Virus record (IMG/VR): IMGVR_UViG_3300028638_000008
Location: 1 to 64,000 of that record
Reading direction: 5' to 3' (one strand)
Length of the DNA: 64,000 bases
From: a virus
Taxonomy: Duplodnaviria; Caudoviricetes
Made by a program: the position numbers and the translations under genes. A model generated the notes under the pieces. That model searched no databases, was not told the origin of the DNA, and was given only the letters and a program-made list of their open reading frames with translations. This document shows, piece by piece, positions 12,833 through 62,490 of the stretch (positions within the stretch are counted from its first letter, which is position 1; every line of letters begins with the position of its first letter).

Positions 12833-13473
12833 AAAAAAATGGTATAATTATTTTGTCTGGCGGGATGGACAGCACAACTCTTTTATATGATTTTAAAAAA
12901 GATATCGCGTTGGCATTATCTTTTGATTACCAATCAAAGCACAATAAAAAAGAGCTTGCTTTTGCAAAATACCATTGTCAAAAACTTGGCATTAAACATT
13001 TTGTTATTAATCTTGATTTTATTGACAAATTTTTTGCATCTTCTTTGTTAAAATCTGGAACCAATATTCCTGACGGACACTACGAGGATGAAAACATGAA
13101 ATCAACGGTCGTGCCCTTCCGAAATGGCATCATGCTTTCGATTGCAGCGGGAATTGCGGAAAGCAACGGGTTAAGCAATATTTACATTGGAAATCATGCT
13201 GGCGACCATGCTATTTATCCAGATTGTCGGCCGAATTTTATTAATTATATGTCTGATGCAATAACTGCGGGAACTTATGTTAAGGTAGAAATAAAAGCAC
13301 AATATACCAATATTAATAAAAGACAAATCGCATTAATTGGCAAAGAACTTGGTGTCGATTATAGTAAAACATGGACTTGTTATAAAGGTCGTGACAAACA
13401 TTGTGGAAAATGTGGCAGTTGTGTGGAGCGACAAGAAGCCCTCAATGGGTTTGATACAACGGAATACGAATAA
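12829..13473 (+). CDS. queC: 7-cyano-7-deazaguanine (preQ0) synthase
   Basis: SGGMDS, VPFRN, YPDCRP, CY...CGKCGSC. Confidence 0.93.
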   Translation: MKKNGIIILSGGMDSTTLLYDFKKDIALALSFDYQSKHNKKELAFAKYHCQKLGIKHFVINLDFIDKFFASSLLKSGTNIPDGHYEDENMKSTVVPFRNGIMLSIAAGIAESNGLSNIYIGNHAGDHAIYPDCRPNFINYMSDAITAGTYVKVEIKAQYTNINKRQIALIGKELGVDYSKTWTCYKGRDKHCGKCGSCVERQEALNGFDTTEYE

Positions 13474-14207
13474 TGAAAATTTTTTTGGCCGGTTCTGGAT
13501 GGGAAAAGACGTGTTGGGCTAATAGAGATTTTTTTGATTTTTTTCGTCTTGAAAGTTTTGCATATATTTCAACATACGAACGATCTGTTATAAATAAATA
13601 TCGTTCTTTTTTATTAGATAGTGGAGCATTTACATATCTTAATAAAAAGACGGGTGATGTGGATTGGCTAAAATACATTGAACAATATGCTGATTTTATA
13701 AAAAAGTATAATGTTGATTTATTTTTTGAATTAGACATAGACTCTGTTATTGGACTCCCTGCTGTTGAGCGACTAAGAGATATTCTTGAGGCTCGTTGCA
13801 ATAAAAAATGTATTCCAGTTTGGCATAAAAGCAGGGGGTTGGATTATTGGAAAATGTTGACTCAAAAATATGATTATGTGGCTATTGGAGGAATCGTTAC
13901 AAAAGAAATTAAGCCGAGTGAATACGATGTGTTTTTATCTCTTCTTGCCATTGCCAATTCAAATAATTGTAAGGTGCACGCATTAGGATTTACTAATTTA
14001 ATTGGATTAAAAAAATATCCGTTTTATTCTGTTGATAGCACAAGCTGGCTAAGTGGCAATAGATTTGGCTCTGTTTATTTATTTGATGGCAAAAACATGC
14101 AAAAACAAAATAAAAAGACAGGACAAAGAGTAATAACAAATAAGACCGCAATACATAATTTTAATGAATGGGTGAAATTTCAGCGGTATGCTGAAAAAAA
14201 TTTATAG
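13473..14207 (+). CDS. dpdA: DNA 7-deazaguanine transglycosylase (phage DpdA/TGT-like)
   Basis: LLDSGAF, FELD, PVWH, VAIGG, VHALG, SVDSTSW TGT-barrel motifs; embedded in que genes. Confidence 0.8.
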   Translation: MKIFLAGSGWEKTCWANRDFFDFFRLESFAYISTYERSVINKYRSFLLDSGAFTYLNKKTGDVDWLKYIEQYADFIKKYNVDLFFELDIDSVIGLPAVERLRDILEARCNKKCIPVWHKSRGLDYWKMLTQKYDYVAIGGIVTKEIKPSEYDVFLSLLAIANSNNCKVHALGFTNLIGLKKYPFYSVDSTSWLSGNRFGSVYLFDGKNMQKQNKKTGQRVITNKTAIHNFNEWVKFQRYAEKNL

Positions 14208-14216
14208 GAGTATAAA

Positions 14217-14546
14217 ATGTATAAAATACAAAAACGAATGGAAATTTCAGCTAGTCATAAGCTCAATCTTGACTATGATAGTAAATGTCGGAATTATCAC
14301 GGACATAACTGGATTGTTATTGTTTATTGTAAGGCAGAAAAATTAAATCATAATGACATGGTAATTGATTTTACTCATGTAAAAAGAATAATTCATGATA
14401 AACTAGACCATCAGTGTTTAAATGACCAATTAAGTTTTAATCCTACTGCTGAAAATATTGCTAAGTGGATTGTTGATAACGTAGATAATTGTTATCGCGC
14501 AGATGTGCAGGAAAGCGAGGGAAATACGGCTAGTTATGAAATATAA
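14217..14546 (+). CDS. queD: 6-carboxytetrahydropterin synthase
   Basis: SASH...CRNYHGHNW...LDH..LN...PTAEN...ES. Confidence 0.92.
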   Translation: MYKIQKRMEISASHKLNLDYDSKCRNYHGHNWIVIVYCKAEKLNHNDMVIDFTHVKRIIHDKLDHQCLNDQLSFNPTAENIAKWIVDNVDNCYRADVQESEGNTASYEI

Positions 14547-15096
14547 AGTTAATGAAATTTTTAATAGCTGGCAGGGAGAGGGGTTTTTTACTGGAACTCC
14601 GTGTACTTTTATTCGATTATCCGGCTGTAATCTTAATTGTGAATGGTGTGATACTGATTTTTTAAGCTTTTCCACTCAAAATATTGAACAAATTATGAAA
14701 AAAGCTGCTTATCGTTTTGTGGTTATAACGGGTGGAGAGCCTACCATTCAAAATATTCAACCATTGATTATTGCGTTGCAAGAAAAAAAACATTTCGTTG
14801 CGATTGAAACAAATGGATTGAATGCACCACCGATTTGTGATTGGATTTCGATGTCGCCCAAAAACGGACATTATAATAAAAATCATTTGGCCTACGCTAA
14901 TGAGATTAAGTTGGTTGTTGACAATTCAGACTTAAATCAATTATTAAACGATGTCGCAGAACATAAGAAAACTGATTTGGTTTGGTTGCAACCGGAAGGG
15001 AACAAGCAAAAATATATTGAACAATGTCAAAAAATAAGCTTGGTGACTGGCTATAGAGTTGGGCATCAGATACACAAGTTAAGAAATTGGAGATAA
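14536..15096 (+). CDS. queE: 7-carboxy-7-deazaguanine synthase (radical SAM)
   Basis: EIF.S.QGEG...FIRLSGCNLNCEWCDT, TGGEP, IETNG; likely start MKYKV at 14536. Confidence 0.92.
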   Translation: MKYKVNEIFNSWQGEGFFTGTPCTFIRLSGCNLNCEWCDTDFLSFSTQNIEQIMKKAAYRFVVITGGEPTIQNIQPLIIALQEKKHFVAIETNGLNAPPICDWISMSPKNGHYNKNHLAYANEIKLVVDNSDLNQLLNDVAEHKKTDLVWLQPEGNKQKYIEQCQKISLVTGYRVGHQIHKLRNWR

Positions 15097-15098
15097 AT

Positions 15099-15638
15099 AT
15101 GATAAAAGAAAGCATTAAAAACATATTAAAATCAATTGGCGAAGACCCGAATAGAGAAGGTTTAATAGATACACCGCGACGAGTAGAAAAGGCTTATGAT
15201 AAGTTGTTTGGTGGTTATAAACAATGCGCTTGCGATGTATTGAAAACATCTTTTAAAGAAGGCAGTTGTGATGAGATGGTTATTTTAAAGGATATTGAAT
15301 TTTATTCAACATGCGAACATCATCTACTTCCCTTTTTTGGGGTTATTTCAGTTGGATATCTGCCAAATAAAAAAGTCGTAGGAATATCGAAACTTGCTAG
15401 ACTTGTCGAAGTATTTGCTCGTAGAGCGCAAATTCAGGAAAGATTAACTGCTCAAATCGCAGATTCAATTATGCAAGAGCTAGAAGCTAGGGGCGCTATT
15501 GTAATTTGCGAAGCGCAGCATTTTTGTATGACTGCTCGCGGTGTTGAAAAACAAAAAAGCAAAATGGTGACAAGTGCTTTGCGTGGTATTTTTCGGCAAC
15601 ATATTGTTAGACAAGAGTTTTTACAGTTAATAAAATGA
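15099..15638 (+). CDS. folE: GTP cyclohydrolase I
   Basis: REGL.DTP.R, CEHHLLPF, GISKLAR, QIQERLT, HFCMTARG. Confidence 0.95.
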   Translation: MIKESIKNILKSIGEDPNREGLIDTPRRVEKAYDKLFGGYKQCACDVLKTSFKEGSCDEMVILKDIEFYSTCEHHLLPFFGVISVGYLPNKKVVGISKLARLVEVFARRAQIQERLTAQIADSIMQELEARGAIVICEAQHFCMTARGVEKQKSKMVTSALRGIFRQHIVRQEFLQLIK

Positions 15639-17051
15639 AGACATCAATCCCCAAATGGAAGCGTCGCCTCTGGAAGATGATAGACAACCCCGAAGGGTTG
15701 CGGTTTACTTTATCTGAAAAACGATACGAGGTTGTTGCGGCTGGCCGCCGCAGCGGTCTACGTTTGCCCTTGTCTTAATTGGCAAGGGCAGGCGTAGATA
15801 AATAAAGGCAAATCAGAAAGAGCGAAGAGAAAATTTATAAAAAAAGTATTGCGTGGCTCGAACTTTGAAGACCCGCGCTATGCTGTTTGCGCTCCGACAC
15901 AAGGTCAGTGCGTAAAGATTTACTGGAACGACTTTAAAGCAATGATACCGCCTGAGTTAATGGCAAAAAAGCCGAACGAATCTGATAAAGAGATTTATTT
16001 AATCAACGGCGCGACAATATTTCTTGCAGGGCTTGATAACCCGGCGCGCATTGAAGGCGCTCCTGTAGACGGATTTCTTTTCGACGAAGTAGATGATATT
16101 AAGCGTTCGGCATGGGAAGCTCACGTTTTCCCGTGTTTTATCGACAGGGGCGCTTTTGCGATGTTTTGCGGCGTGCCCAACGGTTTGCAGTATCTTTATG
16201 AATTAAGTCTTAACGCGGCAAAATACCCGGATGAATGGGATTTTTTCACTTGGAAAAGTGCCGAAGTTATCGACCCGAAAGAGATTGCAAATTTTAAAAG
16301 AATTTACGACGAAAGAACTTTTGCACAAGAATTTGAGGGTAGTTTTGTAACTTTCTCAGGTCGCGTTGCCTATGCCTTTGACCGCGAACACTACAAGCAC
16401 GAACTTGTTCATAGCTTACAAAAGCCGCTTGAAATCTGTTTTGACTTCAATAATGCTCCCGGTATCGCCGCAATCGTTCAAGAACAAGTAATGCCCGGCC
16501 AATTTGAATACATCGAAACAGGCAATGGCGTGATAAAATCGCCAGTTATTGGCTCAGGCGTAATCGGTGAAGTATGGATTCCTCGCCATTCTAACACGCT
16601 TCTTGTGTGCCGCAAGCTTTATGAAGATTGGAAGCACCACAAGGGCGAAATAATCTTCTACGGCGACCCGGCAGGCGGTAACAAAACTTCGCAGGGCGTG
16701 CAAGGTTCAGATTGGGATTTGATAAAAGATTTTTTTGAACAAACAGACTGGAAACACCGAATGAGCTTCGACGTGCCACGCGCTCACCCGTCAGTAAGGT
16801 CGAGAATTAACGCAATGAATTGTAGAATTAAGTCGATTGATGGTATAATAAGATTTATGGTTGACCCTGTTGCCGCGCCGCATGTTGTTGAAGATTTTGA
16901 GCGGCTAACGGTTCTTGAAGGCTCTAATGGCGAGATTGATAAGAACGCAAATAAGGCAATCGGGCATTTGTTCGACGCGGTATCGTATCGCGAATGTCAG
17001 AAATACCCGGTTGATGAAGCGACCCGCATTATAACGGTAAAAGATTTTTAA
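15635..17051 (+). CDS. terL: Terminase large subunit, coding sequence interrupted by a 52-nt insert (segments 15635-15757 and 15810-17051; ~454 aa if joined)
   Basis: ATG 15635 overlaps the folE stop and gives ...RYEVVAAGRRSG; the downstream frame resumes KSERAK...; Walker B DGFLFDE; RNaseH-fold CFDFN, GDPAG, HLFDA. Confidence 0.85.
15758..15809 (+). other. 52-nt hairpin insert in terL (candidate translational bypass or mini-intron)
   Basis: Stem 15757-15774 pairs with 15781-15798 using 3 G-U pairs; loop TTAATT; TAGATAAATAA; bounded by GGT (15755-57) and GGC (15807-09). Confidence 0.8.
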
Positions 17052-62407: not shown

Positions 62408-62490
62408 TGCGGCGCGGGGGAATCGAACCCCCATAGCCTTTCGGCTGAGTGATTTTAAGTCACTTGTGTATGCCATTTCACCACCGCCGC
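62408..62490 (-). tRNA. tRNA-Leu(UAA), CCA not encoded
   Basis: AGTGA-CTTAAAA-TCACT anticodon arm, long variable arm AGCC-GAAA-GGCT, GGGGG-TTCGATT-CCCCC T-arm, acceptor stem with one G-G mismatch. Confidence 0.88.

Follow-up and report, generated by a model that had tools for sequence, protein, structure and literature searches.

The window analysed here comprises the first 64,000 nt of a 74.5-kb virus record of IMG/VR (IMGVR_UViG_3300028638_000008, Caudoviricetes; ~75% complete), and it harbours a terL gene, encoding the large terminase, that is split within its Walker A motif by a 52-nt insert. The gene starts with the ATG at 15635, which overlaps the stop codon of folE as ATGA (15635-38). 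Its upstream frame, MKTSIP...RYEVVAAGRRSG, ends in ...AAGRRSG, of which the last Gly is encoded by GGT, and then runs into a TAA stop within the insert. After the GGC that closes the insert, the codons AAA TCA GAA AGA GCG (KSERA) are in frame with an open reading frame (ORF) called from the TTG at 15849. Deletion of 15758-15809 joins the 41 codons of the 5′ segment and the 413 codons of the 3′ segment into a 454-residue TerL with the motif AAGRRSGKSE. The initial annotation of this DNA had given the same coordinates, which proved exact to the base, and had proposed that removal of the 52 nt restores the Walker A motif; the motif GRRSGKSE is identical to that encoded by uninterrupted homologs. 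The features of the site are listed in Table 1, where the insert is termed coding gap and the codons at its borders are termed take-off and landing codons, after the reading favoured below.

Table 1. Features of the split terL gene, with positions in the window
Feature	Position	Strand	Remark
terL 5′ segment, 41 codons from ATG to the take-off GGT	15635..15757	+	Last 36 codons conserved at the protein level in 14 gap alleles
5′ stem-loop, 9 bp with a 5-nt loop, in the codons of VAAGRRS	15733..15755	+	Predicted fold; abuts the next helix without spacer
Take-off codon GGT (Gly of GRRSG)	15755..15757	+	Across the junction of both helices; GGT or GGC in 15/15 variants
Coding gap, 52 nt, to be skipped	15758..15809	+	38 loci share a homologous gap at this codon
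Take-off hairpin, 19 bp including 4 G-U, loop UUAAUU	15756..15799	+	Fold and covariation
TAA, stop of the upstream frame, within the hairpin loop	15776..15778	+	At least one upstream-frame stop inside the gap in 15/15 variants
Spacer AAAUAAA, A/U only and unpaired, from hairpin to landing codon	15800..15806	+	Predicted fold
Landing codon GGC	15807..15809	+	Over 15 variants: GGC 10, GGA 3, GAC 2
terL 3′ segment, 413 codons and stop, resuming with AAA TCA GAA AGA (KSER)	15810..17051	+	Terminase_6N match

Judged from profile matches, the product of terL is a large terminase of the T4-like Terminase_6N family with the Walker A motif at the start of the domain. The 3′ segment matches Terminase_6N with 20.7 bits (22.9 bits including neighbouring matches) and lacks the first 48 profile positions, and the intact relative P0010 matches it with 47.1 bits over residues 40-236, the domain starting at AGRRSGKT. 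No second large terminase was found in the 74.5-kb record at its ~75% completeness, the split terL being the sole one.

Relatives were collected as viral contigs, metagenome contigs and encoding contigs from JGI, ENA, NCBI and Logan assemblies. Among them, 38 loci, drawn from independent metagenomes, have an insert at precisely this codon and represent 15 distinct versions of four structural classes: class A (the window, L002, L003, L005, L105 and L124), class B with a 2×2 internal loop (L007, L023, L244, L246, L008 and L238), class C (L020 and L108) and class D (L121). The gap is 45, 50, 51, 52, 53, 54 or 55 nt long, such that all three remainders modulo 3 are represented; as close relatives differ by 1-2 nt (50, 51, 52 and 53 nt), the reading frame across the gap is not conserved. 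In the window, the upstream frame is open up to gap position 18 and the resume frame only past position 40, and the two therefore cannot be joined by a single frameshift. None of the 15 variants contains a segment in which a single frameshift would suffice, and simple frameshifting was rejected, since the open frames overlap in 0/15. The window has stops in all three frames, a block that its relatives do not conserve.

Compared to these alleles, the intact relatives L034, P0007-P0011, P0015 and P0021 read ...VVAAGRRSGK[ST]ERAKRKF, which corresponds to the joined product of the window, and AGRRSGK[ST]E is kept in more than 80 distant uninterrupted relatives. Close homologs thus either lack exactly this insert or carry one of the 15 versions with compensatory changes, the two outcomes that the initial annotation had envisaged. 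The nearest protein clusters are called at ~400 aa and slightly more distant ones at ~455 aa; the 5′ ORF used as a protein query found four clusters only, because gene callers rarely call so short an ORF. In the INPHARED phage collection there is no DNA-level relative of the window terL, folE alone being matched. A 16-mer from the 3′ flank of class C had 47 matches in viral sequences, none with terL motifs by an automated check; these matches look like chance.

Comparison among gap alleles revealed that nonsynonymous differences (pN) are far rarer than synonymous ones (pS) on both sides of the gap. For the 36 codons that end the 5′ segment (14 gap alleles), pN is 0.05-0.37 versus a pS of 0.48-0.90; for the 3′ segment, pN is 0.07-0.31 versus a pS of 0.55-0.88, giving a pN/pS of about 0.12-0.38. 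Therefore, both segments stayed coding while silent sites saturated, and by this measure both exons are under purifying selection. An assembly artefact or a decaying gene, against which the initial annotation had cautioned, is contradicted by the 38 independent loci and 15 inserts together with this selection.

The gap is largely taken up by a long hairpin. In the window, 15757-74 pair with 15781-98 to form an 18-bp stem with three non-Watson-Crick pairs, each of them G-U on the + strand, just as first described, and RNAfold adds the pair G15756-U15799. A 91-nt stretch folds at -41.4 kcal/mol with a z of -5.9 (0/200 shuffles as good), and inclusion of the upstream helix brings z to -7.0. The hairpin is present once in the 74.5-kb record. 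Across the alignment of 15 variants, both sides have changed at 10 of the 16 pairs; paired cells amount to 95%, compared to 42-50% with the partners slid, and only 0-2 of 500 shuffles match the observed covariation values. The predicted hairpins all have 17-19 bp and start within the take-off codon or one base earlier. All non-Watson-Crick pairs of the predicted stems, 3-6 per stem, are G-U when read on the mRNA strand, and in 15/15 variants the fold of this + strand is more stable than that of its complement by 9-19 kcal/mol. Selection therefore acts on the RNA, in agreement with what the G-U pairs of the window had originally suggested. Little or no variation is seen in the apical stem GCC...GGGC and the loop UU-R-A-Y-U, and the p-distance of the hairpin within a structural class is 0.02-0.21, far below that of silent sites.

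Search with a degenerate pattern of the hairpin core found only terL loci and unrelated hairpins (L011 in the viral collection; L099, L100, L101, L103 and L104 in bacterial genomes), so the hairpin is not a dispersed repeat. Among the unrelated matches, L011, L100 and L101 resemble terminators. An intrinsic terminator was rejected for the terL hairpin itself, which has no U tract and was negative in a terminator scan.

Immediately 5′ of this hairpin, a second stem-loop is predicted to stack straight onto it, and the take-off GGU consequently straddles the junction of two helices. The 5′ stem-loop arises from synonymous choice in the VAAGRRS codons, which are GCG GCU GGN CGC CGC in classes A and D; class B builds its own from GCC GCC GGA AGG CGG, with the stem capped by GGAA. 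The 27-nt 5′ element folds at -9.7 to -14.6 kcal/mol in the alleles of classes A, B and D and more weakly in class C, compared to a mean of -6.4 kcal/mol for the same 27 nt of intact alleles (n=86) and -3.7 to -5.6 kcal/mol for the intact sisters (gap versus intact alleles, Mann-Whitney p about 1e-6). The element is absent from the intact sisters, and folds predicted for the whole site of intact alleles are not more stable than those of shuffled sequence. Class C is devoid of the 5′ stem-loop. Its Walker A Arg-Arg is encoded by AGG AGG, which forms a perfect Shine-Dalgarno sequence AGGAGGU that ends 2 nt ahead of the take-off GGU. This element resembles the internal Shine-Dalgarno stimulator of +1 frameshifting in prfB, a likeness that would point to a ribosomal mechanism. 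Class C also lands on GAC, and repeats UCG on either side of the gap.

On the 3′ side, the spacer between hairpin and landing codon is 5-8 nt long, 67-100% A/U and free of GG in all variants of classes A, B and D, and the distance from the helix end to the landing codon is 4-8 nt. The flank AAA-NCN-GAA-AGA is invariant in 15/15 gap alleles, but varies in several intact and intein alleles. The take-off/landing pair is GGY>GGC in 10/15 variants (GGU>GGC in the window), and the landing codon encodes Gly in 13/15. The codon that would face the ribosomal A site after take-off is CUA in the window, the rarest Leu codon of the phage (4.0 per 1000); in class B it is CGU or UGU, followed by UGA. A tRNA-Leu(UAA) gene lies at 62408-62490 (-) of the window and reads UUA/UUG, not the CUA after the take-off codon.

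Taken as comparative evidence, these data imply that the insert must be skipped precisely during expression, because homologs lack it or vary it compensatorily and both exons are under purifying selection. The sequences show the anatomy of the site, its conservation and covariation, the selection on both exons and the patchy distribution of the gap; that the ribosome does the skipping, the order of events and any benefit we infer. The initial annotation had placed ribosome hopping and precise RNA excision side by side; precise skipping is supported, and bypass appears to fit best. Accordingly, with a probability of roughly 0.65, we read 15758-15809 as a programmed translational bypass cassette in the sole terL of the phage. 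By sequence comparison and analogy, the site is best read as a member of a new gene-60-like bypass family that is unrelated in sequence to gene 60, the traits parallel to gene 60 and its homologs being what would favour bypass.

We propose that ribosomes translate the 41-codon 5′ segment, coupled to folE, until peptidyl-tRNA-Gly occupies the P site at GGU 15755-57 and the A site faces CUA, the first codon of a very stable hairpin. The peptidyl-tRNA would then unpair, and the ribosome would slide across the gap without decoding, driven and directed by refolding of the 5′ stem-loop behind it and of the take-off hairpin. The tRNA may re-pair at the first GG past the hairpin (GGC 15807-09), at the end of the short A/U-rich unpaired spacer. 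Decoding would restart at AAA, yielding the Walker A motif GRRSGKSE and a TerL of 454 aa, and ribosomes that do not hop would terminate at the stop in the hairpin loop.

T4 gene 60 carries a 50-nt coding gap, reportedly described by Huang in 1988. The traits of gene 60 bypass have been listed by Manning and Atkins (bioRxiv 10.1101/2022.08.31.505936), and the myovirus topoisomerase homologs of their survey resemble terL in that an essential phage gene has its coding gap of ~50 nt within an invariant motif. The parallels extend to the details of the site. In both systems a Gly take-off codon lies within the base of a stem-loop, with a second stem-loop directly 5′ of it, and the A/U-rich 3′ part of the gap is free of premature GG. 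The landing codon is mostly a Gly codon matched by wobble, and ribosomes that fail to hop would reach stops. A poorly decodable A-site codon may be a further parallel (in terL, CUA in class A, with UGA one codon later in class B, but the common GGC in class C). Moreover, cassette and recoded flank spread as a mobile allele at a site also used by homing elements.

However, the two systems also differ in several respects. They share no sequence similarity, and the terL gap lies in the Walker A motif rather than in a topoisomerase gene. The short, tetraloop-capped stem of gene 60 contrasts with the 17-19 bp hairpin of terL. The A-site codons of terL are sense codons (CUA, CGU, GGC and CCG), and the landing codons GGA and GAC mismatch a GGY-reading tRNA. 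Nearly all gene 60 homologs have a mini-Shine-Dalgarno 5-7 nt before the landing site, whereas terL gaps have none, and most terL loci have no linked gene for MobA or another endonuclease. A homologous gene 60/MobA cassette was accordingly rejected, given the different gene, the different sequence and the lack of MobA linkage. The survey of Manning and Atkins (bioRxiv 10.1101/2022.08.31.505936) describes gene 60 homologs in topoisomerase genes and does not mention terminase.

Several observations weigh against bypass. In none of the variants do the 10 nt before the landing codon contain a mini-Shine-Dalgarno (GAG, GGA, AGG or GGG). Instead of a stop, the A site would face a sense codon, which in class C is the common GGC. 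The hairpin is far longer than the take-off stem-loop of gene 60, and thus cannot fit the A site whole. The narrow distance from helix end to landing codon would also suit an RNA-cutting activity that measures structure, and the virus record is only ~75% complete. In addition, the matched Gly codons originally pointed out hold for the window and altogether 10/15 variants, but not for the other five: neither GGY>GGA in L005, L105 and L121 nor GGU>GAC, kept by the two diverged sequences L020 and L108, is accounted for by strict codon matching. The cited bypass papers allow latitude in P-site re-pairing, which still does not account for landing on GAC. A hop from Ser UCG to Ser UCG in class C is unlikely, as it would yield GRRSKDKSE, a non-canonical P-loop.

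Other natural cases bear on the terL gap as well. The byps of Magnusiomyces capitatus mitochondria (Lang 2014; Nosek 2015, cited in PMC5009743) are GC-rich hairpin inserts of 27-55 nt in protein-coding genes that are mobile and skipped between similar take-off and landing codons, with imperfect matches tolerated. They belong to a yeast mitochondrial translation system, with many copies per genome in many genes, whereas the terL gap occupies one site in one gene of bacterial viruses and has an extra 5′ stem-loop. In Streptomyces phage Hau3 (PMC10732093), bypass also affects the large terminase, the take-off Gly of its first site being likewise followed by Lys (GWG|K), and the junction peptide was demonstrated by mass spectrometry in E. 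coli. Unlike terL, Hau3 has 10-nt inserts triggered by a rare UUA without a long hairpin gap, in an unrelated terminase family and host. This 10-nt, UUA-triggered case is the only one we found in the literature on terminase bypass, which yielded no description of a terL hairpin-gap family.

The alternatives concern the step at which the gap would be removed. At the RNA level, an activity could cut after GG(Y) and before (N)AAA and religate the ends of this hairpin mini-intron, such that a continuous mRNA is translated. We consider this unlikely, although exon ends of 'GG' + 'N AAA' or 'GGY' + 'AAA' fit 15/15 variants, including those with GAC and GGA, the near-invariant apical stem GCC...GGGC and loop UU-R-A-Y-U are as expected of a recognition element, and the 3′ junction is only 4-8 nt from the helix end. 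That junction lies in unpaired RNA outside the helix, where an RNase III-type cut cannot produce it, and RNase III excision was rejected on this ground. RNA excision further assigns no function to the Gly take-off codon, the conserved GG that precedes the resume codon, the upstream-frame stops or the class C Shine-Dalgarno sequence. To our knowledge, precise excision of ~50 nt of mRNA with religation is not known from bacteria or phages beyond group I/II introns, and 45-55 nt is too small for a self-splicing intron core. Comparison of the site with Rfam matched neither introns nor other RNA families and gave only sub-threshold miRNA-like hairpin noise, and neither RtcB nor an RNA ligase is present in the ~75% complete record. 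A true mini-intron, the 45-55-nt segment being excised by a novel bacterial machinery that recognizes the apical stem and the UU-R-A-Y-U loop, we hold to be somewhat more doubtful still; if real, it would account for 'landing' on GAC and GGA with no need for tRNA re-pairing.

At the DNA level, the hairpin might be precisely deleted in some genomes, or co-infecting intact alleles might supply TerL in trans. Palindromes are liable to replication slippage, gap and intact alleles occur within one sample series (Ga05650xx: L238-243 versus L250-251), and the two interleave on the tree. Nevertheless, such heterogeneity is improbable: every assembly of the gap lineages (38 loci) has the gap, the cassette-type 5′ flank is never seen in a joined form among 2.9 million viral contigs, and the sole direct repeat is of 2 nt (GG). 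The strand-specific G-U pairs, the 5′ stem-loop made from synonymous codons and the conservation of the hairpin far above synonymous sites point to a function in mRNA, and dependence on a helper would not maintain purifying selection on both exons across saturated synonymous divergence.

Translation through the insert, by readthrough where needed, would give in-frame variants a TerL with a loop insertion of 15-18 residues and is very improbable, since a gap length divisible by 3 in 7/15 variants and a single in-frame UGA in four (L023, L244, L008 and L124) stand against a frame that is not conserved among close relatives and an insertion within GxxxxGK[ST] that would break the P-loop, and the +1 relation of the 52-nt gap, with stops in all three frames, refutes it for the window. 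It is equally hard to credit that a selfish palindromic insert killed the gene in decaying or satellite elements: the insert does break an essential motif and two ORFs are called everywhere, but the 15 diverged variants keep two intact exons, each under purifying selection, no other lesions are seen, contigs of up to 112 kb come from many samples, and the record has a single terL.

Analysis of the allele distribution suggests that the favoured bypass cassette is mobile. In the tree of the 3′ segment, gap, intact and intein alleles are interleaved among near-identical proteins, requiring at least 10 state changes, and the cassette has therefore often been exchanged or lost. Sister pairs include L121 (gap) and L120 (intein), L246 (gap) and L034 (intact), and L020 (gap) and L004 (intein), whereas L007 and L238 (gap) cluster with P0008 (intact). 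A tree with all gap alleles together is rejected with an AU p of about 2e-51 for a group defined after seeing the tree. Nucleotide identity between sisters falls to 0.60-0.73 over the 30 nt 5′ of the site, compared to ~0.8-0.97 in most outer intervals, a local drop expected if cassette and flank move jointly by recombination. By these patterns, the cassette consists of the hairpin and ~30 nt of recoded 5′ flank and behaves like an allele that related phages of a population can exchange. The collection of 2.9 million viral contigs holds no joined, gap-less allele with the cassette-type 5′ flank.

The same loop is targeted by an intein of ~370 aa with Hint and LAGLIDADG ('LAGVFDTDGS') motifs, inserted at GRR^SGK (6 nt 5′ to the gap site) and ending in ...VTSN|S. 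Intein alleles of the same TerL clade are L004 1768-4239 (= L021, L113), L025, L120 and L123/L125. These P-loop inteins are selfish elements at the same loop as the gap, but they are translated in frame and removed from the protein, whereas the gap contains stops and frame changes and cannot be translated. No TerL allele of this clade has both intein and gap. Given the distance of 6 nt, the gap would split the homing site of the intein; by analogy, a possible though unproven benefit of the gap is immunity to the intein homing endonuclease, as has been proposed for the coding gap of gene 60. Control of TerL dosage is another possible benefit. Neither this intein nor the mobility of the cassette, nor the 5′ stem-loop before the take-off codon, figured in the initial annotation. 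A different intein-like insert, ending in ...GGIITHN|SEIAKR and apparently located after the Walker A Lys, occurs in the distant L087 (about 38% identity), and these sequences suggest the P-loop as a hot spot of insertion by several selfish elements. At gap loci whose gene tables were read, no endonuclease gene is called except in the class C phage L108-L110, where a gene for a 325-aa HNH endonuclease (HNH_5; 375-1352) lies immediately upstream of the terL 5′ segment.

For decades, long-range hopping of bacterial ribosomes has rested on one natural example, T4 gene 60 with its direct homologs in topoisomerase genes, in addition to the yeast mitochondrial byps. The terL Walker A family would add independent natural variation, with 15 variants in four structural classes, tandem hairpins, no mini-Shine-Dalgarno and non-cognate landing codons, and this variation can help to separate essential from replaceable bypass signals. 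The polymorphism of empty, intein and gap states at one protein loop among near-identical phages also provides a compact system for testing an immunity origin of coding gaps. Furthermore, a split terL is annotated as a broken terminase, called at ~400 aa from an internal start, which misleads judgements on the completeness and viability of viral contigs.

Some further observations concern the relatives and the surrounding genes. A subgroup nested next to class A (L009, L024, L027; P0012, P0019, P0022-P0024) has a different N-terminal region of ~60 aa with the Walker A motif GRRFGKS; its match to the window begins only at residue 23 of the 3′ segment, which looks like mosaic replacement of the whole interrupted region. 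In L008 (= L014, L117) and P0018, the 3′ segment extends to 614 aa (gene call of 570 aa); its sequence suggests a fusion of this terL with the gene that follows, or readthrough into it. Hints on the host come from binning only, namely Methylotenera and a contig of a Caldithrix metagenome-assembled genome (MAG). The latter, L102 (DYKF01000004.1), a 41.7-kb contig binned as Caldithrix sp. with a class B gap identical to that of L008, is probably a phage contig inside the MAG bin and a weak hint. Directly upstream of the window terL, 13473-15638 encode a DpdA-like gene, queD, queE and folE of the preQ0/7-deazaguanine pathway, and the relatives L106/L107 have queC and folE at the corresponding place.

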